A stretch of 63,998 nt of DNA, filler included, from Reclinomonas americana ATCC 50394 (taxonomy: Eukaryota), in assembly GCA_048213135.1 (NCBI GenBank). It is 9 parts of 9 records of this genome, joined end to end, with 100 filler letters (N's around TTAATTAATTAA, not from the genome) between each part and the next. Parts side by side here need not be neighbours in the genome. Positions count along the whole stretch, not along the records: positions 1 to 14,635 come from AFZH01022222.1; 8 more parts are not named here. One strand, written 5' to 3'. The notes below the pieces were generated by a model that saw only the letters and a program-made list of their open reading frames with translations, was not told where the DNA came from and did no database searches. Position 1 is the first letter of the stretch. The number at the start of each line of letters is the position of its first letter. A program made the translations under genes and the position numbers. Positions 1 to 63,998 of the stretch are shown in pieces.

Positions 1-1
1 C

Positions 2-855
2 GTGTGTTCGTGTAAGAACCGGACAAGCTGCCAATCCGACGGCACTTGCAGCCAGTGCACATGTGCGCATGGAGGCACGTGCACTCATGATGGCTCGTGT
101 GCATGTGTTGATCCGTGGAGCGGTGTCGACTGCAACACGTGCACTTGTGCCAATGGAGGCACCTGCAACGACGACCACTCGTGCACCTGCCGCGGCAACT
201 GGGGCGATGTCGACTGCAGTGTGTGCTTGTGCAAGAATGGTGGCACCTGTGAAGGCACGACCGGCGTGTGCAGTTGTACCGGATACTGGAGTGGACCAGT
301 GTGTGCCGACTGTACGTGCCCCATGGGGCAGACTTGCAATTCGGACGGCTCTTGCGCTCCCTACAGTGGTCCCAGCTCCGTCGGTAAGCAGCTACAGAGA
401 AGGTCGCTCTTTGAAGCACACCTTGAGCTCATTATTGTTGAACAGTGGTTGGCGTTCTCGGTGGCGGAGCTGGCGCGCTCACTGTCTTCCTTCTTGCAGC
501 AGTTGTGATATGCCTTTGTCGATATTGGAGTTGTTGTCGGCGGCCAATGTCATGGTGGGATCAGATGCGGCATGATGGCGGCAACCGAGCTGGGGATGCA
601 GAACTGGCCGAAGTCCGTCGCGATCGCGATCGGCGAGGTCCTGCTGCAGCTCCACCTGCTCAAGAAGAACGCGGACAAACACCATTCGTTGTGCGCAACA
701 AGAATGGTGAACTGGTGCAACCGGATCGCGATCTCGACCAAAATCAACCTGCTCGTGCGGCCGCACCACGGGTCAATGCTGGTCAACGACTCCCAGCACC
801 AGCAGTCGAGGCGGTTCGAGTTGAAGCAGCTCATGTTGTTATCACTCGGTCGTAA
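2..855 (+). CDS. EGF-like repeat single-pass membrane protein (5' truncated)
   Basis: Tandem EGF-type repeats (CAHGGTCTHDGSCACVDPWSGVDC; CANGGTC...; CKNGGTC...). An intron at ~384-446 (gtaagc...aacag) joins them to a TM segment VGVLGGGAGALTVFLLAAVVICLC, a juxtamembrane Cys cluster (RYWSCC) and a cytoplasmic tail; stop at 855. Confidence 0.85.
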
Positions 856-1035
856 CTTGGCTGCAAGAGTGTTTCTGTCTGTTCAGTATCCCAACACCTT
901 CCTCGTTCATTTCCTTTGCGTGTTGGATCGTATGATGTCTCTCCTGATCCCTCTTTTCACACTGTCGAATAAAGCAGTCAGTCATTCACCACGCAAGACG
1001 GACCAACATTTATTGACAGTGACCACTTGCTGCAT

Positions 1036-3072
1036 TCAAGACGGAAGTAGCTGGTAGAAGCACAGCACTGGGTGCGCCTCCAGCAACGGTCCAGCTTCGT
1101 ACACTTGGTCGTCGTCGAACTCGAGAGCCTTCCCGTTCCACGGCTGTCAACAGACAGACACACAAAGTGAGCAACAAAACCACAAGACCACACACACTGC
1201 TGACTGCAAACAGCGCACTTTTACGTGCGCAATGTAATGTCCCGCCTCCGTGGAGGCTCCGAAATGATAAATAGTGGCCCTCAGGTCATACACCACAGGA
1301 TTGGTGGGAGCGTCGTCACGCGGCAATCGCAGAGTCTGCGACGGTTTTATGGCATCGATCGGTCCGTTCTTTCCGCGGCTTCTGCCGCGTCGCATCGTCA
1401 TGGCCGTCTCGGAGTCGGCCGACGCCACACGCAGCAGCAGCACCTGCGGAAACAGGGAGATGCAGTCGCGCTCCAAACTGTCGCTCTAAACGAACCACAA
1501 CGGCGCACGGGTGAGTTATTCGGCTCACGAATCGAGTGGACAACAAACCGACAGCACTCAACTCTGGCGTCCGGTCCCTGCTGGCGGAACACTGGGCATT
1601 GCGGGTTGCGGCACTTGATGCCACCCTTCAGTTCGCGATGGCGCCACAGTGTTGCCAGGTCCTTTTCGAGGAGACCATCTCCGTTGACGGTGAGTTCGAG
1701 GAACGCATTTGCCTCCTGTCGCCGGTGCCCGCATTCCTTGCACTCGGTGATTGTGGTCAGCTGGCCTTGGAAGAGATGGCGAAGAGCTGCGATACAAGAG
1801 TCAGTGAATCAATATCGAAAGGATGGGGAGATGGCGGGCAGCTGAAGACGCAACGCTCCATCTGCGGCATCATGTGCTCCGTGAAAAACGACTGCACATG
1901 CGAAAGACGTGAGATGTCTGCTCGTCAACACCCATCCACACGACACGACACCAACGCAACGCCTGGATCCTCTTGCATCCCGGTGTGCTGGTATCCAATG
2001 GCGCGGAACAAGGTTCTCTGCAACGTTGGCGGTCAGATGCATGCGTTGCTGCGGCACTTAGAAACCGAACAACAAACACACCATCATATCGCCGCGACGG
2101 ACGGTGGGCCTGAAACCAGGCACATTGTGTACGTCGAGAAGGAAGAACAGCTGATACATCACGTCGAGACTGGGCGTCTTCTGCAGCTGCTCGTCTGCAT
2201 ACATCGCGAACAAATCGGAACGCACGTCGTACGTGAAGCGCAAGCACTCCATCAACGAATTGAGGAAGCACGTGTTGCCTGCGTTGCCCAGACGCACAAA
2301 GTGAGACCACGTCACAGCTGCCACATGAAAATGAGCGAGCACACGAACCGATGTTGGGAATGCCCACGGGACCACGATCGGCCATGGTCTCGTCGATAGT
2401 CGCTGGATGCACCGGACAATCCGGCTCCAGCACAATGAAGCTGCTGGGATACGGCTGCAGTGGCTGCCCCATCCGCTCCCGCTTCTTCCGCGCCACTTGC
2501 CGCTCAATGTCGTCCTGTGGTGTCCCCTGTTCCTGTTGAATGGCCAGCGCCTGCTGCTGCTGCTGCTGAATGGCCAGCGCCTGTTGCTGCTGCGCCTCTT
2601 GCCGCTGCCGCTCACGCTCCGCCGCCTCCTGCTCCGCCAACAGCATCGCCTGTCGCTCCACCTTGTGCGCCGTCAACTCGGGCGTGGGCGGAGGCTCATC
2701 CACAGCTTGCCCTTGCCACTCTTGTTGCTGCTGTTGCTGCTGTTTTCGTCTTTTTCTCTCCTGCAGTTCCTCCTCTCGCCCCGCTGGTGCCGGCGGCAAA
2801 GGCGCCGGAGGCAACGGGCCGACCGGCAGTCGAGATGACTGGCGCGCAGACTGACGCGGTGACTGGCGTTGCGGCGGCTGCTGCTCCTCCATGTGCGAGT
2901 GCAGTGACGGAATCGCACTTGGCTGCCATGGAACCGCAGGTGGAGGATCAGTGGGAGAACGTGCAGGCGGCTGCTGGTGTGGCATGCGTCGCATGCCGTC
3001 ATTGACCGGTGCCGGAACATGCGCGTTATGCTTACTTCCCGTGTCGCCGGGTTTGCTACAGAGGGAGCCCAT
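1036..3072 (-). CDS. USP-family deubiquitinase (peptidase C19) with N-myristoylation motif and Q/P-rich N-terminus
   Basis: Spliced product has a Cys box GIPNI|GNTCFLNSLMECL, QEDP box, finger Cys pairs CKEC and CRNPQC, His box YDLRATIYHFGASTEAGHYIAHVK and FDD. N-terminus MGSLCS. Confidence 0.88.
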
Positions 3073-3214
3073 TGTTGTGTGCGTGTGTGTGAATGTGTAT
3101 TGAGAGCCAGCGGACGGGAATGGAACACAGAATGCATATGACAGGACATCTTCGTGTGCATTTTTGATTTTTCCGCACACAACACTTGAGAGGAACCGAA
3201 CCCACTTTGAGAAC

Positions 3215-6200
3215 ATGGACACGCAAAAGCAGCAGGTGAGTGTGAACTGCGCGTCACGAGTGCGAGCGAGATCGCGCTGAGAAAAGTGTGCGTGCTGTGC
3301 AGGAACTGTCGCGCATGCTCGCGGCCATGGGCCACGAAGCCGTCGAGCGCCTTCGCCGTGCCTCGGTGCTCATCACTGGCCTCAGTGGACTTGGTGCAGA
3401 GATTGGTCAGTCTCCCTCTCCCTCTGTCTTTGCATCACAGAGCGTCTCTCACCCCAATGCGAAATCAGCCAAGAACCTCGTCTTGTCAGGCATCCAGTCA
3501 CTGACACTGCATGACGATCAGGCGACCACATGGAACGATCTCTCGTCGCAGGTACACTCGCTCTTTCCCCTCTGCCTGCTGCTGTCCACTGCACGTCGAC
3601 GTGCTGAGTGTTGTCCGCCTGTAGTTCTTCTTGGGTCCGGACGATGTGGGCCAGAACCGCGCCGAGCGCAGCTACGCAGGTGTGGCCGAGCTCAACCCCG
3701 ACGTGTCGGTGCGTGTCAACACGGAGGGCGCGCTGCCGAGTGACGAGCTGTTGCGGTCGCATGCGGTTGTCGTGGTGGTCGACAAGCCGGCGCGCTCGCT
3801 GCTGAGTCGCGTGGAGCGCACGTGTCGCGAGGCCGGCACGCACCTGGTGTGGGCCGAGAGCCGAGGCCCCTTTGGTGGCGTGTTTTGTGACTTTGGACCG
3901 GCGTTTGTGTGCTCTGATGTCGACGGGAAGAGCTGCCAGCCCATGAGCATTCTCACCATTGTTGCGCACATGCATTTTCTCCGTCTCATCACGCAAAAAG
4001 TCTCTTTCTCTGACACTGTTGATGCAGACCGATCATGGTGAGGTGGTGGTGCACGACAGCACTCCGGCGGACAACGTGTACCGCGGCTCGCTGGTGCGCT
4101 TTGTGTGTGTGTGTGTATGGTCCTCCGTCTTTCGCGTTCGTGTCCGTGCTAAGTGGTGGCGTCCGGACAGGTGGCCTTCTCCGAGGTCGTCGGTTGTGAG
4201 GGCATCAATGACAGGCAGCTGCGCGTGGAGGAGGTCCACGGCAACACCATCATGGTGGGCAAGCTGGCGGATCATGGCATCACTGGCGAGTACGCCAGCG
4301 GCGGCTTGGTGCGACGCATCAAGGAGCCGAAGACCATGGCCTTCGTTGCGTCATTGCAGAATGCACCCTTTCGCCATCATACATTCACTCACATACCCTC
4401 GCACCGCACCAGAAACCGCTGAGCGAGTCGATTGTGTCGCCCGACTTCAACGTGGAGACTGGCGAGCTGAAGGATCACCTGCGACGCGGCGTGCACCTCG
4501 GTTTCCAGGCCATTCACGAGTTCGAGGCAGAGGTCGGCGGCCTTCCTCGCTCGGCTTCCGTCGTTGCGTTTTGCTGTACACGCCTATCTGTTTGTGCGCC
4601 ACGGCTCACCTTTTGCGCACCCCCAGGAGGATTCTGAGCGCGTCATTGCCATTGCGCGCCGCTTGGCCGGTGAGGCGGCGCCGCTCGATCGCGACGAAGT
4701 GGACGTGGTGCGCACGCTGTCGTTCTTTGCCCGTGGCAATCTCAACAGCATGGTCAGCGTCGCCGTTCTTCTTCCTACCCCCTCGTTGTGTGCTGACCTT
4801 TCTCTCCTCCCCATCACAACAGGCGTGCGCTCTCGGTGGTTTCGTCGCGCAGGAGGTTGTCAAGGCCGTCTCCGGCAAGCTGCAGCCGTTGAAGCAGTGG
4901 ATGTACCTCGACGTGTGCGAGATCCTTCCGTACGACGCCCCGCTGCCGAGTGCCGAGTACGAGCCTGTTGCGTCGCAGTTGACATCCTACTGCGCATTCC
5001 ACTCGCTCACCTCCACCCCCTCCTCCTTTCTTTCTCCCGCAGCGCAACAACCGCTACGACGGACAAGTTGCGGTCATTGGGCACACGCTGCAAGACGAGC
5101 TGATGAACAAGAAGATCTTTGTGGTTGGTGCCGGCGCACTCGGCTGCGAGTACCTCAAGAACCTGGCTCTCATGGGCTGCGGCTGCGGTCCCGACGGCCT
5201 CGTCACAGTGCGTACACCTATGCACCACATGCATTTTTTCTGATTCACTCACTCGCTCGCTGAGCAGGTGACTGACATGGACGCCATTGAGACGTCGAAC
5301 CTGAATCGCCAGTTCCTCTTCCGCCGCCACCACGTTGGAGTTCGTCCCTTGTGCCCCCCATTCACGTGTACCGCCGCCCATGTTGCTGATCTGCCTCTCC
5401 CCTCCGTGCAGCAAATGAAGTCCAAGGTGGCCGGTGAGAGCGTCAAGCGCATCAACGCCGACTTCCACGTCCGTTCGTTGGAGAACCGCGTCAACGACAC
5501 CACCGACGCCACCTTCTCCGAGGAGTTCTGGCTCTCACAGAACCTGGTGCTCACCGCCGTCGACAGCTTCGAGGCGCGTCGTTCTATCGAGAAGCACTGT
5601 GTGGCCGCGGGCATTCCGTTCTTCGATTCGGGCACTCTGGGTGTGGAGGCTCACTGCCAGGTTTGTACATGTGTAGTGCTCTGCATTCGCACGCTCTAAC
5701 GACATCAATACTCTCTGCAGCCCATTATCCCCCGCCTGACAGTGCTCTTCACTGCCCATCGCGACTCGCCCGACCGCAAGGAGATTCCAGTGTGCACGAA
5801 GAAGTACTTCCCGTACCAGCCGGAGCACACGATTCAGGTCTGTTAATTATTGATTTTTGGTGGTGATGCCACTCTACTCATCCTCTTCTGCTCTCTCGGA
5901 TCTGCAGTGGGCACTCGACGAGTTCGCCAATCACTTCACCCTCATTCCGCAACGCGCCAACGCATACATAACCGACGGCGCCATGTTCGAGGAGAAGTTC
6001 AAGGGCATGGAGCGTGGCACGGTGCGTTGAGAATCAAAAATAATAATCGTCTGCCTGTGTCACTTGGCTGACCCGCGTGCACCTGGGGACACAGATGGTT
6101 CGCCAGCTGCACTCGTTCCTGGTGGCCGACCATGCGAGCACTTTCGAGGACTGCGTCGTGTGGGCACGCAAGCTGTTCGACGAGTACTACCTGCGTTCAG

Positions 6201-7576
6201 TGCGTGTGCTGCTGCAGACGTACCCGCCGGGGTGCCTCGACAAGCACGAGCAGCCGTTCTGGAGCGGCACCCGCCGTTTGCCGCAGGAGATCGCCTTTGA
6301 TCCGTCTGACCCCGTGCATGCCGATTTCGTTGTCGCCGCCTCCATCCTGCGCGCGCAGACCATGGTCATTGACGATTCGCTGATCCCTCGCCTGCCGCTC
6401 GCCGCCCTTCGTGAGCATGTCATCTCCATTGCCACGGCGCGTGAGAGTGCAGCTGGTGCATCGGCCGCCGAGGAGGAGGCTCTCGCTGCCTCGATTGCCT
6501 CCGCTCTGGAGGCAGAGGCGGCCGACGAGCATGCCAGCAAGGCCGGCACGGTGTCGGCGACACGCACCCAGGGCCCGCAGCGCTCGGCTGCCGCTCGCCT
6601 TCCAGAGCTGCCGTCGTCGGAGGAGCTGCACGGGCGAGTGGTACCACCTCGCAGCATCACGTTCGAGAAGGACGAGGTCGGCAACTGGCACGTGGAGTTT
6701 ATTCAGACGGCCAGCAACCTGCGATCGCGTTGCTACCGGTAAGTATGCCTCCCTTTGTTGCGACTTTGCTGTCGTTTACAATGTGCTCATGTACTCGGTC
6801 TCTCCGCACAGTCTGCGTGAGGTGGACCGACTGGAGGCACAAGTCACTGCTGGTCGCATTGTGCCGGCGCTCGTGACCACCACCGCCTTCGTCACTGGTC
6901 TCTCAGGGTTCGAAGTGCTGAAAGTTGAGTGTTGTGCGATTCACTTTGATCGTGTTGCATGAGAACTAAAAATGTGTGTGAATGCACAGTACCTGCAAGG
7001 CAAGGGTGTGGAGTGCTACATGTCCTCGTTTATCAACCTCAGTGTTCCGCAAGTGCTCGTCATGTTTGCCGACGCCTGTGGCACGGTGAGCGCGCAACTG
7101 ACCTGCCTCAATGACACCGTAAATTGCATGCTTATTCGTGTTTTCGCAGTACGATTTCGCCGGTCAAGAGTACACGGCGTGGGACTCGATCCGTGTGGAC
7201 GCTGAGGCGGCGGCGACTGTGGGCTCCTTTGTCGATCATCTGGAGCGCACATACGGAGTGATTGTCGGCTCTGTGGCCGGTGCCGACAACACGTTGTGGT
7301 ACATGGACATGTGGAAGGGCGACAAGTTGGCGACGGGTCGTGCCAAGACGTTGCGTAGGCTTGATGGTGACGATGGGTCGTCTATGATGTGCTGATGATC
7401 TCTTCGGAAAAAAATGCAGATTTGCCGAGTTGCAGGGCGCCAGTTCGTCGTCGGCAGCTCCGCAAAAGTGGCTGCAGCTGCACGTGTCGGTCGACCGCGG
7501 AGAGACCATGTACTCGACGCAGCCGGTGCCTGGCGAGACCGTGCGCATGCCGGCAGTCTTTGTCGCACTGTCTTGA
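3215..7576 (+). CDS. Ubiquitin/UBL-activating enzyme E1, UBA1/UBA6/UBA7 family, diverged
   Basis: Multi-exon: [76 protein letters not shown]; catalytic [24 protein letters not shown] (Cys codon 5793-5795); [27 protein letters not shown]-terminal UFD-like region. Confidence 0.93.
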
Positions 7577-7697
7577 TCAATCACACACACGCACACACGC
7601 ACACGCACGTCTTCAACTTTGAAGCAATAATACAAGAGCGGGAGTTTGTTCGCTGCATCAAACAATTTTGCCACTTATATTTTTCTCGTCTCGCCAT

Positions 7698-10076
7698 TCA
7701 ATCTGCTATCTGCTGCCGGTCTGCGACGGGACATGGCGTCAAGAAGATGCCACACCTGTCGATCGGGCAACAAGAGCGTGTCAGAAGTCAACAGGTGGAA
7801 CGGTGCTCGACACAAGGCTACGCAACGGCCAGTCGCCACCTCGTGGCTTCACTTGCAAACAACGGAAACAGAACTCAGTGCCACACTGTTGCGCGCGGAG
7901 AGAGTGAGAAGGCACTTTTCGTAGTGTAGCACAGGGTGAATACGTACCCCTGCTCGCGTGCATCGCACATGCTTGCAGGCCTCGGCGTGCTCTGCACAGC
8001 GCCCGAAACCGTGAGCGACAGAGGAGCAGAAGCACGAGTTACACATACAGACAACGCACCGACGAGGGTATGACATCTGGGGCACGCGCGAATCGCCGGC
8101 ACGGTACCAGGCAAGCCGCTGATTGTCTTGGTGCCGCATGTTCGTAGCACGACGCTTACACCCGACGAATCGCAGTCTGCATTGCCACACCAGCGTCCGT
8201 CGGCACCCGATCGCCACGACCTCTCACAGCGCAAACAAAATCTACGCGTGCGCGCACACGCACACACACAATCGTCGTGAATACCACAGCCTGATGACAT
8301 TGCCACACTGCAGAGAGAGAGATAGAGAGACGCAACTCGGTACTGCACAGGCCACAAGTGATGCGCCGCAGGTTCGGATCTTCAGGCATGATGGAGGCTT
8401 GGCACTGCCGGCACACACACAAAGCACTGGTAAGAAGAATAGATGCAGACTGACTGGCAATCACTGGGCGAGTGCGACAAACCCGGCTGTTCGGGCACGT
8501 CTTGGCCTTGCCGGTGAGGAATTGTCGATTCAGCAAGTCAAAGTACTGGTGCGACAACTCCTCGAATCGCGCCTCGCTGGCGGCACTGGTGACCACGTCC
8601 AGCGGAACGACTGCCGGTGCACGAGTGAGTGGATGAAATCAGTTCACGCGCACGAGAGGAGGAAGCGCAACTGGCTTTGCATCCACCGCGACAGCAAGCC
8701 AGTGGCCGAGTCGAGTCCTCTCGAATGAGAAGCTGCAATTGTGCACGCATGCACTCGGCGTGCACGCCGTGCGAGCATGGCAGCCGGTACACAGTGCCCT
8801 CGTTACCCGTGCAGTACTCGCACGTGCATCCGCCAGTCGTCTCCAGCCGCACATTGCTGCGCATGGTCGGCATGGGTCCGCCGCCGCTACCACTTGCCGC
8901 AGCCGCTGCTGTTGCGCCGGCCGGCACCTCTGCCGCTCTTGCCAAGCGACGCATGGTGGGAGGGGCCATTGACATGTCCTCCAGCTGGAGACATCTGCGC
9001 ACGGGGGGATAGTGAGCAAAAGACGGCGAACATGCAGAGGATGTGGAGGCGGCGGAGGAGTCGCAACTCCAGCGGCATCCACTGTCCGCGATTGGCGAAT
9101 GGCGCAAGGTCGGGGCACTCGTCGGGCACGAAGGCGTCGGATTGAAGATCGCGATCAAAGGTAACATAGCTGCAGAGCGAATTAGCATCACTTAAAGACA
9201 CACTCGTGCACGGCATGCACTCACCATGGTGGTGGGTACGCCTCGCCTCGCAGATCTGGCGGCGGCAAGTAGTCGACGTGTTGCAGCACTCCGCGATCTG
9301 TGCCCCAAGAGCGCGTCAGATGAACACGTAGCGTTCACAAACAGTGTGCTCACGTGCGCCACTCACCGCCAACTCGCACGGTCCCGTGTGGCCGAATGAC
9401 ATTCACACGCTCGCCGACACGAGTACGCAGCTGCTCGCAGTACTCGTCCAGAGCGGCGGCATCAATGACTGGCTCTGCGGCACGCTTTATCAGCTCATCT
9501 GGTACCACCACCACCACCACAGCGACAAGACATGCAACTCCACCTTCGGGAACGACTGCAGCCGAGCCCGACGCCGCTCCAACAGCACCGCCACCAGGCA
9601 CGGCAGGTACCGCTGCCGGTTGGGCTCCGACCACGACTCGGATATCACTGCGACACAAGAAAGGTCAGTTGACTCTACATACAAGAGCGCACGACGAGCG
9701 ACGCACGAGTCATTGACCCAGAAGCCGCTCTCTGCGCGACAGCCGGCCAAAGCAGCGCGCATCGGCATGGCGCTGTCGGATTGCAAATCGGTGCGTTCCC
9801 AGCTCACATAACTGCATGAAAAAATGAGAGTGAGCCACACGCGCACACGCCAGAAAGCGCAAGGCAGGAGAATATGCACTCACCATGTCGGTGGGTACTC
9901 GTCGTGCTCCCACAGCGTTCCCTTGTCTGTCGATTTCGCCAGCAAATAAATAAATTCATCGTCGCAACCACGCTGCTGCGATGCACAACTCACCGCCAAC
10001 ATTGACGGGCCCCACGGCACGGATGCACTCGACCCGTGTGCCAATGTTGATTTGGCCGGCGCCACCTCCGCCACCG

Positions 10077-10109
<33 letters not shown>

Positions 10110-10853
10110 ATGGCACCACCACCAACACCACCACCCAGTCGGCGCAGCAAGGCCAGTGCCTCATCCCGCCGCTGGTGCCGAATGATGCGTAGATCGCTGC
10201 GACACACACTCAGCAACAGCATGCTACACAATAGACAAAGAGACGCGCCACACTCAACCGGGGGAACACCCAGTAGCCGTGGCTGCGTGGACACCCCGCA
10301 TCCACCGCCTCACGCGGCACGAGGCCGCTCGTCCACCGCAAGTTTCGATCCCACGACACATAGCTGCACACCAGTCAACAACAACCCTGTGCCGCGCACG
10401 CTCACGCAGCAAAAAACGCAACAAGCCGCCACGCTCATGACTGACAATGAACGTTCCCTTGTCTGCATGCCACACACTCATCAGTGACAAGCATAGTGGG
10501 GCGGGAGACCCTCCCCACACAGCACACCTCCTTGTCGCACAGCAGCATCCTGCATGCGTATGCACTCGACCCTGTCAAACATCTCAATCGACTCCTCCAC
10601 AAATCCGCCATACGCGTCACGGTCGCCTCCAAAGTCCGCCAGCGTGAGGATCTCGTCCTCCTGATCATCCACTTGCGGCGCCTCCTCGTCTCCATGCCGC
10701 TGATGCTCTTCCTCACCTCCTCCTCCTCCACGAAGTTGCTGTTGTTGCTCTTGCTCATGCTCTGTGTGTGTGTGTTCGGTCAGGGATGCATCACTGTGTG
10801 GCAGGGACAACACGCGATGCGTAACGAATGAGGCTGCCCAGCAGCAGCAGCAT
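7698..10853 (-). CDS. RBR (RING1-IBR-RING2) E3 ligase with three N-terminal CPH-like (SH3-type) repeats; start uncertain
   Basis: RING1 CEYC...LPCSHGVHAEC...CCRGGC; IBR CPN-QC...CGLC...FCLRC; RING2 RACPRCHTLVEHAEACKHVRC...EFCFRCL; C-terminus PCPVADRQQIAD*. Three repeats of the form RV(E/N)(C/V)IR...GD(K/R)G...YV(S/T)(W/F)(D/E)R...G(Y/F/Q)W lie at ~9050-10650. Confidence 0.85.
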
Positions 10854-11364
10854 GGCAAGATCCTTTTGTATGTTCCACACGCACACGCACACACGCGCAC
10901 ATGACGTTGTCAGATGAAGAGTGCAGTGACTGCGGAGAAACTCTGTACGCAACTTGCGCGTTCATCTTCTCGTTGTCTGCGGGTATGCGTTTCACACACA
11001 GAAAGAGAGACACGCCCACAGAGGCACACACAGCAGCGCGCGTGTCTGTCTGAGTTTTGAGCGCCGGACGACAGAGTGTGTGTGTGAAGTTGCGGACGGA
11101 GCTCGCGCGCTGACTGGACGTGTTCCATTTGTTGCTGCAACTGCAGTGTGAGTGCCGTGTTTTGTGTGCGTGGTGTCTCTATCTGTGCGTGCGTGTGTAT
11201 GCGCTCTGCTGTCTGTGCCTGTGTGGCTTGCGTGTGCATGAGAGTGTGCCACGTATGTGTGTTAGTGTCCGCCTGCCTCCTATTCTCACTTTTCTCTCTC
11301 TCGCATTCGCATTTTCCACAGGCGTGCTGTGTGTGTGTGTGTGCGTGTGGGGAGAAAGTCACAA

Positions 11365-32870: not shown

Positions 32871-38271
<5,401 letters not shown>

Positions 38272-38335
38272 TTGCACAACAAAGAACAAACGAAGACAAA
38301 GCGAGCATGATAAAAGTCACTCTCTTTGCTTGCAC

Positions 38336-40503
38336 ATGTTGCGCCGAGCGTTCTCCTCTGTGCTGAGCAGCCGCGCGCTGCGAGGAGGCATGTGGTCGCC
38401 TGTGAGCAGCAGCAGCAGCAGTCACAGTGGCAAGTTTGTTGTGTGCAGTGCAGGGCATGCCATGTCGTCGCGTGTGTTCTCCTCCTCGTCGTCGTCTTTG
38501 GCGGTTGGAGAGCAGGAGGAGGAGGAGCAAGGGGAGTTGATGGAGCTGTGGGCGCCGAACACGGCGTTGAATGAGATTGCGGATAATGAGGGCGCGAGGA
38601 TGCAGGTGAGTGGGTGTGGAGAAGGGAGGGAGAGAGGGAGTGGAGGGAGGGAGAGAGGGAGAGAGAGAGAGAGAGAGAGAGAGCGTGAGAGAGAGAGAGA
38701 GAGGAGGAGGAGGGGGAAGTACGTCGTTCGTGCATGCGTTGTGCAGATGCGTTGATGAGTGTTGAAGATTGACCTGAGAGAAAGATACACGCTCCCACAC
38801 GCACACACACACACACACTGAGAGAGAGGGTGTGTGCGAAGACGCACGTGCATGCTTTACAGAGTTGAATGCAGATGCGCTGATGAACATTAAGATTTGA
38901 CATTGAGTTGACCTTGAGAGGCACAGACTCGCACACACACACATACTGAGAGAGAGTGTATGTGAAGACGCACGTGCATGCTTTGCAGAGGTTACTGCAG
39001 ATGCGCTGATGAGCATTCAAAAGTTGACGTAGAGAGGCGAAGACTCGCGCACACACTGAGAGAGAGAGAGAGAGAGCGATGGTGTGGGAAGACGCACGTG
39101 CATCCGTCATAGAGATGCATGCATGCACTGATGAGTGTGGAAGAGTTGACCTTGAGAGCACACACACACACAGCGATAGAGGGTGTGTGCGAAAACGCGG
39201 GTGCATGCTTTGCAGAGATGAATGCAGATGCGATGATGATCTTGCAAGATTGACCTTAAAGCGAAAGAGAAAGCGACCCACATGCATGCACAAACACAGC
39301 GTGAGAATGTGGGAAGACGCACGCGTATGCTTTGCAGAGGTGAATGCAGCTGCGCTTGTGTACATTGAAGAGTTGAAACCTTGAGCGAGCGAGAGAGAAA
39401 GAGACGCACACACACGCGCGCGCGCAGCAAGAGAGTGTGTGGGTGGACGCGTGCATGCGTTGCGTTGTGAGCTTGCAAGAGTTGAACTTGCGAGGCACAC
39501 ATTCACGCACACAGTGTGGGAAGACGCACGTGCAGGTGAATGCAGAGCTTGCAAGAGTTGAACTTGCGAGGCACACTCACACTCATACAGTGAAAGAGCT
39601 GATGCTTGCGCTGGCATGCACGGAGAGCGAGACAGAGGATCGCACATGCACGGATGAGCATTGAAGAGATGACAATGTGAATGTATTTGTGCTTTGAGCG
39701 ACTGCGCGTGAGAGAGAGGCTTTATGTGCATCCACTCTTCTATTCATGCGCTCACCGCCTTTCCCCTGTGGCATAGGCCCGGCGTGTTGGTCGTGGCATT
39801 GGCTCCGGCCGTGGCAAGACCTCTGGCCGCGGTCATTTGGGTCAAAAGGCGCGACGCGGTACCGGCAAGCCGCGCCCTGGCTTTGAAGGTCATTCCCTCC
39901 TCCCTCCGCTCACTTGCCCCACCCACTCTCCTCACTCTTTCCTCTCCGCATAGGTGGTCAAACACAGGGCTGGAAGCACCGCGACGGCAAGGAGCGCGGC
40001 TTCTTCAACCCGCACACCCTCGACTATGCGATCATCAATGTGTCGCAGTTGCAGGTGTTCGCCTCGCAAGGTCGGCTGCCGACGGATGGCTCGCTGATCA
40101 CCATGCGACACCTGTACGAGGTGGGTCTCGTCTCACGATTGCGGTATCCGGGCATCAAGTTGTTGGGCGATGTTGCGTTCGGCTGCGAGAGAGCTGCCCT
40201 CCCCCTGTTCCCTCTCTCAGACTTGCACACACACAGGGTGCGGATCTGCTGAAGGCTCCGCTGAAACTGGAAGTCAGTCGTGCGACACCGTCGGCGGTGG
40301 CGGCGATTGAGGCGGCTGGTGGGCAGGTGGTGCAACGACATTTCCCGGCGCAAGCAATCATCCACATGCGCCGAGCCAGGAATCCACAGGAGCTAGAGAA
40401 AGTGCGCAGTCAGACGTATCTGCCGCCACAGAACTTGCGAGACGTCTACGCCGTCGTGCAGCAGCAGTCGAATGCGCCATCGAAGGCCAATTCAGCACGC
40501 TAA
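38336..40503 (+). CDS. MRPL15: Mitochondrial ribosomal protein uL15m
   Basis: Presequence-like [85 protein letters not shown]. Confidence 0.9.
38720..39670. repeat. Degenerate tandem repeats filling the ~1.17 kb uL15m intron
   Basis: Recurrent gaagacgcacgtgcatgcttt.cagag.tgaatgcagatgcgctgatga...gttgaccttgagag units. Confidence 0.8.
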
Positions 40504-43541: not shown

Positions 43542-55878
<12,337 letters not shown>

Positions 55879-62625: not shown

Positions 62626-63050
62626 CACACACACACACACACACAAAGTGAGTGAGTGCCTGCAAGTCTGCCTGTGTGCATCTACGCCCCACCGCCATCC
62701 GCACGCGGAGTGTGCATGCTTTCGTTGTGCTCCGTCTTGATTGGCAAACTAAGGACACGGACGGACGGAGGACGANNNNNNNNNNNNNNNNNNNNNNNNN
62801 NNNNNNNNNNNNNNNNNNNTTAATTAATTAANNNNNNNNNNNNNNNNNNNNNNNNNNNNNNNNNNNNNNNNNNNNCGCGATGTTCAGAGGCCTCGTTTCG
62901 CCGGCACCAAAAAGGCGCGATCGCATCCGCGCGCAAGCGCAGCTCATACGCGCCCTACGTGTGCCCAGAAAATAGGCATACCATTACGCTGCGTAAGCAT
63001 TTTTAACCCTCTTATCGTAATTGATCGCGCAACGATCTGGGGAGAAAAAA

Positions 63051-63998
63051 GTGCCGAAATTCCAGTCTTTGGGCGCCAAGGCGGCAGGCCTGGTCGTCGC
63101 GTTGTGCGTGGCGTGCTGCGCCGTGCTTCTCGTGCTGTCGCATTTCGCACTCAGGGCCGATGCCGATCTCGACATGTCGAAGGACGCCCTGGCGGCGCGC
63201 GGTCGTGCCCAGGACGTGCTGGCCAAGATCGGCCATCGGGTCGAAACCTACGCCTCGATCTACGCGACACATCCCGAGGTCGTGGCGGCCGTGCAGAGCG
63301 GCGACAAGGCCAGGCTGCGCGAGACCTTCGTGCGTCTCTTCGGCCAGATCAAGCAGCTCGACCCCGTCATCGGCACGCTGGAAGTCACCGATGCGAAGGG
63401 CGTCGTGATCATGCGGGGCCACAACCCCAACAGCGCCGGCGACGACAAGAGCAAGGACCCGTTGGTCAGCCGCGCGATCGGAGGCCAGTCGGCCAGCGGC
63501 CTTGCGGTCTCGGCCTCGTCGGGCGAGGTGGCGACCGAATCGGTCCAGCCGATCAATCTCGGCGGGCAGCGCCTCGGCACGCTGAAACTCGGCTCGCGCT
63601 TCAGGGCCGATACCGCGGCCGAGATCAAGCGGCTGACCGGCGCCGAGGCCGTGCTGATCTACAAGGGCAAGGTCAATGCCGCGACGCTGCCCGACCTGAC
63701 GTCCTTCGCCATCCCCGACGGGGCCCTGGCGGCGGACGCCACCGCCACGATGAACCTGAGCGGGCGTGCATTCGAGGTGTCGGGCCTGTCGCTTCCCATC
63801 ACGGGCGCCGACCCGCTCACCGTCGTGACCCTGTCCGATCGCGGGCCGCGATATGCGGCTCTGGTCGCCTTCGAGCTCAGCCTCGCCGGCAAGGCGCTGC
63901 TCCTGCTGCTGGTTCTGGTGCCGCTGGTGGCGCTGATCTCGCGCCGCAGCGTCCGCTCGATCGAGCAGCTGACCGGCGTGATGAAAGCCCTGACCGCG
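63051..63998 (+). CDS. Bacterial Cache-domain membrane sensor, probable methyl-accepting chemotaxis protein (3' truncated)
   Basis: GGAGA RBS, GTG start, intronless with high GC3; TM1 AGLVVALCVACCAVLLVL; dCache-like LEVTDAKGVVIMRGHNPNSAGDD; TM2 ALLLLLVLVPLVALI; HAMP start RSIEQLTGVMKAL. Confidence 0.88.
   Translation, partial: MPKFQSLGAKAAGLVVALCVACCAVLLVLSHFALRADADLDMSKDALAARGRAQDVLAKIGHRVETYASIYATHPEVVAAVQSGDKARLRETFVRLFGQIKQLDPVIGTLEVTDAKGVVIMRGHNPNSAGDDKSKDPLVSRAIGGQSASGLAVSASSGEVATESVQPINLGGQRLGTLKLGSRFRADTAAEIKRLTGAEAVLIYKGKVNAATLPDLTSFAIPDGALAADATATMNLSGRAFEVSGLSLPITGADPLTVVTLSDRGPRYAALVAFELSLAGKALLLLLVLVPLVALISRRSVRSIEQLTGVMKALTA

Follow-up and report, generated by a model that had tools for sequence, protein, structure and literature searches.

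The gene at positions 3215–7576 (plus strand) of the window was found to encode a diverged E1 enzyme of the UBA1 (ubiquitin-activating) type, in which the full catalytic set is kept and many residues that are nearly invariant in other UBA1-type enzymes are changed. The window is the whole stretch of DNA analysed here, 63,998 nucleotides of Reclinomonas americana ATCC 50394 (GenBank assembly GCA_048213135.1). It consists of nine parts of nine records joined end to end with filler letters between them; positions 1 to 14,635 come from AFZH01022222.1, and parts side by side need not be neighbours in the genome. We infer, with rather more belief than doubt, that the gene is a lineage-specific duplicate of UBA1 which is catalytically competent and whose partners have been retuned or narrowed. 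Its paralogy, its narrowed partner set and its continued use of ubiquitin are all deductions.

UBA1 is among the most constrained of eukaryotic enzymes: it must fit an invariant ubiquitin and dozens of E2 enzymes. To our knowledge, a pathway of its own arose with each of the few duplicates of UBA1 that have escaped this constraint, namely UBA6, UBA7 and the plastid E1. As another escape, the gene described here would be a natural experiment on the residues that set the choice of modifier and of E2. If it is the only E1 of the organism, residues regarded as invariant would be dispensable for general ubiquitin activation.

Catalytic residues and altered motifs

The E1 was aligned with 92 other UBA1-type E1s of at least 850 amino acids, a few near-duplicates included, in one alignment; counts out of 92 refer to this panel. 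The catalytic set was found to be complete, with GAGALG at residues 430–435, SNLNRQ at 466–471, Lys483 (MKS), Asp531 (AVD) and Arg11 (LSRM; R in 68/92). PVCT lies at residues 586–589 and contains the catalytic Cys588 (C in 89/92), and both Thr589, next to the cysteine, and Lys591 are kept. The initial annotation had described the ATP-binding (GAGALG, SNLNRQ) and catalytic (PVCT) motifs as intact, and all of them are present in the alignment. The motifs RYDGQ and FEKD..N.H.DF were also found. According to the part of a UBA6 study cited here, Thr626 and Lys628 of UBA6 bind, in the closed state, the AMP phosphate and the Mg-site Asp, and Asp569 is predicted to bind Mg (PMC9391358); Thr589 and Lys591 are the equivalents of Thr626 and Lys628. 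The motifs are located as follows.

3303–3332 (+): [10 protein letters not shown], initial motif of the inactive adenylation domain (first repeat), corresponding to LYSRQLYVLG; Arg11 kept, Gln changed to Met
5127–5144 (+): GAGALG
5295–5312 (+): SNLNRQ
5313–5423 (+): [13 protein letters not shown], spanning intron 11, active adenylation domain
5556–5579 (+): AVDSFEAR
5631–5837 (+): [11 protein letters not shown] across intron 12, followed by the crossover loop on exon 13
5739–5750 (+): TVLF, exon 13
5760–5804 (+): [15 protein letters not shown], crossover loop, exon 13
5787–5798 (+): PVCT with the catalytic Cys588, exon 13
6662–6724 (+): [21 protein letters not shown], exon 15

The altered residues sit at positions that are fixed in 74–90 of the 92 E1s. 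YSRQ is replaced by LSRM, with M in 0/92 sequences and L in 1/92. ALDNV is replaced by AVDSF (S in 0/92, N in 90; F in 0/92), and the change of D to E in the adjoining 'DAR' is not unusual, as E was found in 35/92. GTKGN.QV reads GVEAHCQP, with E in 0/92 (K in 76), H in three sequences and P in one. TESY reads TVLF, with V in 0/92 (E in 82), L in none and F in one. DPP became DSP (S in 0/92) and CTLK became CTKK (K in 0/92). One extra residue, absent in 89/92, was found in the crossover loop. The same loop keeps the Asp of R-D (D in 87/92) and the Gln of GN.Q (Q in 89/92). Every change listed in the initial annotation for the near-invariant UBA1 segments is therefore real, and most are unique among the 92 E1s. 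None of the other sequences examined has this combination of changes at near-invariant positions of the tail channel and the Mg site.

The initial annotation had also stated that the altered motifs contact the tail of the ubiquitin-like modifier and the E2. This stands for the crossover loop, which holds the tail, and for the C-terminal UFD, which sets the E2 choice. It does not stand for YSRQ and ALDN, which are part of the ATP/Mg site; for the Asp of ALDN this agrees with the predicted Mg binding of Asp569 in UBA6 (PMC9391358). The E1 of NEDD8 presumably has Ser at the Asn of ALDN and the E1 of UFM1 presumably has NFEAR; if so, these states are compatible with activity. The R-D Asp and the GN.Q Gln are assumed to be among the residues that hold Arg72 of ubiquitin. 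The modifier of the E1 is probably still ubiquitin, or one whose tail is of the Arg72 type.

Degree and distribution of the divergence

Pairwise identity of the E1 to ten named UBA1s was 31–39% (464–617 bits), whereas the ten, which come from several eukaryotic supergroups, are 39–61% identical among themselves (678–1259 bits). The ten were from four fungi (two ascomycete or chytrid), a legume, a nematode, a mite, Willaertia, the jakobid Andalucia and a red alga. Column conservation was scored in a panel of 84 non-redundant sequences plus the window E1. At 282 columns, at least 70% of the panel have the same residue; the E1 departs at 73 of these (26%; the panel median is 12%), and only three of the 85 sequences deviate more. 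Fifteen of the 73 departures are common to no other sequence of the panel.

The departures are not spread evenly. Ranked from the lowest match to the panel consensus, with approximate domain limits, the E1 is third of 84 for the FCCH domain, sixth of 84 for the crossover loop and seventh of 84 for the SCCH domain; within the active adenylation domain it is second of 84 for the first part and fifth of 81 for the last. The UFD matches the consensus at 0.28 against a median of 0.43, the sixth lowest of 80, and the initial annotation was right in calling it very divergent; its Pfam score is likewise below the cut-off (see below). The inactive adenylation half (26th of 79) and the region of the four-helix bundle (41st of 84) are ordinary. 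Divergence is thus concentrated in FCCH, the active adenylation half, the crossover loop, SCCH and UFD.

A DHX16/Prp2-type gene of the same window was used as a rate control. Three of its exons (34232–35320, minus strand; 236 amino acids) are 79–82% identical to green-algal and animal orthologs in 45 of the 45 matches listed, so the lineage is not fast overall. This DEAH helicase gene extends over positions 33550–37300 (minus strand).

According to the part of a review cited here, ubiquitin contacts its E1 through three interfaces, formed by FCCH, adenylation domain and crossover loop; the loop holds the tail and has an acidic pocket for Arg72 of ubiquitin, and E2 choice is assigned to the UFD (PMC12355090). 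Since FCCH, crossover loop and UFD are partner contacts according to this review, the pattern is consistent with partner surfaces that were retuned while the catalytic engine stayed the same. The initial annotation had suggested a different modifier or a different E2 partner. The concentration of the divergence in these domains makes altered partner surfaces likely. Nothing shows a different modifier: the crossover-loop Asp and Gln are kept, and no ubiquitin-family domain was found in 275 ORFs (open reading frames) nearby.

The gene could also be the sole, general UBA1 of a poorly sampled lineage, which has drifted and still charges the ordinary set of E2s. We consider this a serious possibility, though a doubtful one. 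It agrees with the complete architecture and catalytic set and with the retention of the tail-channel Gln and the crossover-loop Asp. The DHX16 gene of the window is also without a close relative (best identity 82% among the matches listed), and missing orthologs may be a matter of sampling. The lowest conservation of UBA1 is reported, in the portion of the source cited, for some protist phyla (PMC11354881). However, a sole UBA1 would have to fit an invariant ubiquitin and dozens of E2s, yet it is residues fixed in most of the 92 E1s that are changed, and the UFD is among the least canonical. The acceleration is moreover specific to certain domains and not general, DHX16 being normal.

Domain architecture and family assignment

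Pfam and Protein Data Bank (PDB) searches were run exon by exon on unspliced translations, a procedure that lowers the scores of split domains such as the UFD. For Pfam, 16 of the 19 exons were scanned (2, 4 and 6–19). Domain matches were obtained for nine of them, and the other seven, all short, were without a match. The domains are distributed as follows.

3625–3960 (+): exon 4, inactive adenylation domain (ThiF repeat 1), Pfam ThiF
4171–4562 (+): exons 6–7, FCCH and four-helix bundle, with intron 6 at 4345–4412, Pfam
5043–5660 (+): exons 10–12, active adenylation domain, Pfam ThiF on all three
6095–6738 (+): exon 15, second catalytic cysteine half-domain (SCCH), containing an insert rich in Ala and Glu, Pfam
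7150–7576 (+): exons 18–19, very divergent UFD, weak Pfam E1_UFD

The first ThiF repeat was matched on exons 2 and 4 and the second on exons 10, 11 and 12 (up to 54.8 bits). E1_FCCH was matched on exon 6, a single exon of 58 amino acids, at 21.5 bits, below the cut-off of 29.5; E1_4HB on exon 7 at 28.3 bits, above the 25-bit cut-off; and UBA_E1_SCCH on exon 15 at 133 bits. E1_UFD reached 20.3 bits on the unspliced exon 18, below the 25-bit cut-off, and exon 19 gave no match. Against solved structures, exon 18 gave no E1 match at E ≤ 10. The six-domain architecture of an E1 was thus seen exon by exon: both ThiF repeats, FCCH, 4HB, SCCH and a putative, weakly matched UFD. With this putative UFD the order of domains is that of yeast Uba1 and human UBA1, which have the same catalytic residues. 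The window E1 differs from them by its low identity, its unique substitutions, the one-residue insertion in the crossover loop and the sub-cut-off UFD.

The comparison with UBA1, UBA6 and UBA7 that the initial annotation had proposed was made exon by exon against the solved chains. Eight exons were tested; the top match was UBA1 in five, UBA6 in two and neither in one. Exon 4 (inactive adenylation) matched human UBA1 at 57 bits, UBA7 at 41 and UBA6 at 24. For exon 10, the start of the active adenylation domain, the scores were 73 (human UBA1), 61 (UBA7) and 58 bits (UBA6), and for exon 15 (SCCH) 76–82 (UBA1), 52–66 (UBA7) and 42 bits (UBA6). The PDB matches of exons 6 (FCCH) and 7 (4HB) were UBA1-type chains only. 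The order was different for exon 12 (active adenylation), with 55 bits for UBA6, 44–46 for yeast Uba1 and 37 for human UBA1, and for exon 13 (crossover loop), with 29 bits for UBA6 and 23–25 for UBA1 (yeast Uba1 25). From these matches the gene is classed as a UBA1-type E1 and not as a UBA6 ortholog. The preference for UBA1 in five of the eight exons would be expected of a sole UBA1 as well.

UBA6 is the second ubiquitin E1 of vertebrates, which also activates FAT10 and is paired with the E2 USE1. The window E1 resembles it in being a putative second UBA1-type E1 with partners of its own. An ortholog of UBA6 in a distant eukaryote would account for the higher scores of exons 12 and 13 with human UBA6, and the alignment shows NxEAR in both enzymes and, in both, a His where GN has its Asn. 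The FLFR.HH of the window E1 is presumably also found in UBA6. The likeness is local, being confined to the adenylation and crossover exons; both enzymes also retain the Thr and Lys that follow the catalytic Cys. UBA1 scores higher than UBA6 in exon 4, exon 10 and SCCH, no UBA6 match was obtained for FCCH or 4HB, and RYDGQ of the window E1 is UBA1-like. UBA6 keeps GTKG (GTKGH in the alignment), and the window E1 does not; we also assume that UBA6 keeps TESY. UBA6 works with FAT10 and USE1, whereas near the window E1 no FAT10-like gene and no active dedicated E2 was seen in scans of open reading frames (ORFs) over 7.6–22.5 kb. UBA6 itself is about 40% identical to UBA1 according to the part of the source cited (PMC11354881). 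Orthology to UBA6 is considered very unlikely.

UBA7, the E1 of ISG15, is described in the cited part of a review as a duplicate of UBA1 that is specialised for another modifier, one with the same LRLRGG tail (PMC12355090). It serves here as a model for a duplicate that changed its partner without changing the chemistry of the tail. UBA7 scored below UBA1 in all five exons of the window E1 in which it was matched, and it is restricted to vertebrates according to another partly cited source (PMC11354881).

Gene structure and coding signal

Exons were read from the sequence of positions 3000–7800 and joined by their coordinates, with splicing based on sequence and homology. The 19 exons form a single open frame that encodes 1042 amino acids with zero internal stops, from the ATG at 3215 to the TGA at 7574–7576; these limits are identical to those of the initial annotation.

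Exons 1–7 (+): 3215–3235, 3303–3405, 3469–3551, 3625–3960, 4028–4093, 4171–4344, 4413–4562
Exons 8–13 (+): 4627–4752, 4823–4966, 5043–5207, 5268–5339, 5412–5660, 5721–5837
Exons 14–19 (+): 5908–6021, 6095–6738, 6812–6923, 6990–7085, 7150–7349, 7420–7576

All 18 introns are of the GT..AG type and very uniform in length (60–77 nt). The donors are weak in consensus: GTTGCG was found in 5/18, and position +3 can be T, G, C or A. Exon 5 was provisionally ended at 4093 (donor GTGCGC); with the alternative donor at 4103 (GTGTGT) the protein would be three residues longer. The fungal UBA1 P0007 gave colinear matches on the plus strand from 3270 to 7049 in a tblastn search, and no other E1-like match in the first 22 kb of the window. 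The coding sequence has a strong codon bias, with a GC content at third codon positions (GC3) of 0.79. The window itself is eukaryotic in character, with a GC content of 52–62% (about 58%), many introns and reading frames split into short pieces; no long ORF of bacterial style spans the E1 gene.

The many unique substitutions near the active site and the very weak UFD could be those of a decaying or non-catalytic relic of an E1. This is judged highly improbable: no stop or frameshift interrupts the 19 exons, every intron is canonical at its ends, the GC3 is high, and none of the residues on which adenylation and thioester formation are known to depend is lost.

Complex-plastid algae and apicomplexans have a plastid-directed E1, sUBA1, a strongly diverged derivative of UBA1 that acts in a private pathway. 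The window E1 is also a divergent UBA1 derivative, and a clade of the panel that was taken for sUBA1 (P0017, P0022, P0026 and P0027; the label is inferred) is similarly diverged, with deviations at 21–26% of the conserved columns. An E1 of this kind, belonging to the symbiont ERAD-like (endoplasmic reticulum-associated degradation) import machinery of a complex-plastid alga, would need a signal and transit peptide. Only seven residues precede the conserved E1 core, the frame upstream of the ATG at 3215 is closed at 3101–3103 without a further ATG, and the start of a divergent gene is some 150 bp from that of the E1; there is thus no room for a targeting leader. In the tree the window E1 is separated from that clade, which sits with red-algal UBA1. 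FCCH and 4HB are detectable in the window E1 but absent from the Pfam lists of P0017, P0022, P0026 and P0027. A plastid-directed E1 is accordingly regarded as extremely improbable.

The divergent gene (positions 1870–3100, minus strand) gave zero Pfam matches. Its product is rich in Gln and Pro runs and opens with MGSLCSK, a possible start for N-myristoylation or palmitoylation.

Phylogenetic position and search for relatives

In an IQ-TREE analysis of 41 rows under the site-heterogeneous model LG+C20, the end branch of the E1 measured 1.97 against a median of 0.89 (2.2-fold), the second longest of the tree. No strongly supported clade contains the E1. The nearest row is P0087 (926 amino acids), with an ultrafast bootstrap of 85 and an SH-aLRT of 89. 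The trees were built without named UBA6 sequences. A FastTree analysis had paired the E1 with P0132, a row with UBA6-like motif states, which would favour a UBA6 ortholog. Under LG+C20 the E1 leaves P0132, and the identity between the two is 28%, the lowest of 40 rows. The FastTree pairing, flagged as a long-branch join, was rejected as long-branch attraction.

In the LG+C20 tree, a clade of P0017, P0026, P0172 and P0077 joins the red-algal UBA1 P0181 (bootstrap 81, SH-aLRT 85). P0022, from the diatom Thalassiosira exigua, is a relative of the P0017 clade. This is the pattern expected of a plastid-directed E1 of red-algal origin.

Exon 15 (214 amino acids) was used as a query for close relatives. 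A HMMER scan of 1.84 billion representatives gave 1142 matches at E ≤ 0.001 and zero at E ≤ 1e-30, and a word-index search gave 27 matches, with a best identity of 33% and no self-match. A scan of metagenomes gave four loci at 28–38% identity and no close relative. Literature on UBA6/UBA1 phylogeny and on the crossover loop and Arg72 gave reviews and structures, and no E1 with these motif states; no literature search was directed at gene clusters of an E1 with RBR ligases.

Several of these results weigh against a retuned duplicate. P0087 shares the rare AHCQP and is otherwise an ordinary UBA1, 42–48% identical to canonical UBA1s, a point that counts for a sole UBA1; the odd motif GVEAHCQP may in part be a lineage trait of the housekeeping enzyme. 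The pairing with P0087 is moderately supported, both sequences are compositionally GC-biased, and P0087 shares nine derived states with the E1 against 11 each for P0132 and P0086. The pairing is best treated as a lead only. The degree of divergence is not unique, as P0132, P0159 and P0163 deviate more than the E1 at conserved columns. Since the searches above revealed no ortholog that has these motif states, purifying selection on the odd residues is not demonstrable. Two further points concern the genes downstream of the E1, which are described below: the E2-like protein is, from its sequence, unable to accept a thioester, and the clustering with RBR ligase genes may be a coincidence.

Proposed mode of action and neighbouring genes

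From its conserved residues, the E1 would bind ATP-Mg and the C-terminal Gly-Gly tail of a ubiquitin-type modifier in the active adenylation domain. An acyl-adenylate would be formed, the modifier would move onto Cys588 of the crossover loop/SCCH domain, and it would then be passed to an E2 docked on the C-terminal UFD. Under the favoured reading of a UBA1 duplicate, release from serving the whole ubiquitin system would have allowed faster change in the modules that contact the modifier and the E2. The duplicate would have been retuned to narrower partners, possibly the three RBR ligases and the Cdc34-like protein encoded downstream.

7698–10400 (−), upper limit approximate: RBR-like ligase gene A (RING1, IBR, RING2), from motifs and a weak zf-RING_2 match
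11300–13400 (+), limits approximate: RBR-like ligase gene B, from motifs and an IBR match at E 0.002
14800–16361 (+), lower limit approximate: RBR-like ligase gene C, from RING and IBR matches and motifs
18500–19100 (+), approximate: Cdc34-like gene with an E2 fold, at least three exons, 5' end undefined, Pfam UQ_con at 20–24 bits

Gene A is convergent with the E1 gene, and some 120 bp separate its 3' end from the stop codon of the E1. RING1, IBR and RING2 motifs were found in all three RBR genes, and RING2 keeps A-C-K-H-M/V-x-C, including the putative catalytic Cys; the Pfam RING and IBR matches are weak. The three are paralogs by tblastx: C matched A in colinear pieces (E 1.5e-34) and B at E 3.9e-12. 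Runs of N (assembly gaps or masked stretches) are present at about 14690–14735, just upstream of gene C, and at 19780–19880, downstream of the E2-like gene.

The last exon of the E2-like gene was compared with yeast Cdc34. FTPAIYHPN is identical, and DGRLVLKKL stands against DGRLCISIL of Cdc34, with Val in place of the catalytic Cys. Because of this replacement the protein is ruled out as the thioester acceptor of the E1. The 'clustered E2' that the initial annotation had put forward as a candidate partner, which lies 11 kb away, was consequently dropped in this role; the protein could be a cofactor. Modifier genes were sought with the ubiquitin family (PF00240) in ORFs of at least 36 amino acids over 7.6–22.5 kb, and matches were found in 0/139 ORFs on the plus strand (E ≤ 0.1) and 0/136 on the minus strand (E ≤ 0.05); short split exons could escape this search.

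All five genes (E1, three RBR ligases, pseudo-E2) fall into 16 kb, with the RBR genes and the pseudo-E2 inside 12 kb, which hints at a functional connection; the expanded RBR family and the dead Cdc34-like E2 suggest partners that can be tested. A stronger version would unite these five genes in a clustered private cascade of an unsampled eukaryotic lineage, whose E1 would have been retuned, through its crossover loop, FCCH and UFD, to a modifier other than ubiquitin or to a non-standard acceptor. One possible route would be direct hand-over to the RBR ligases, with the dead E2 as an adaptor. This version is thought unlikely; if true, it would be a eukaryotic gene cluster resembling bacterial E1–E2–ligase operons.

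Other features of the window

The gene that follows the E2-like gene gave a weak RSN1_TM match (CSC1/OSCA-type channel) at 20000–20400 (plus strand). A search for tRNA genes found none. Exons of a MOR2/PAG1 (Furry-like) cell-morphogenesis gene were indicated at 45600–52300 (plus strand) by weak Pfam matches on three ORFs. Dense (CA)n and (CT)n microsatellites at 38187–39743 and in many intergenic stretches give long false ORFs (CVCV, SLSL, THTH). The strongest coding signal of the window is an open frame of 325 amino acids at 63021–63995 (plus strand), which runs off the window end and matches the sensor domain dCache_3 at 39 bits. Only bacterial sensor clusters were found as its nearest neighbours in the Atlas, and the domain is an odd one for a eukaryotic gene.

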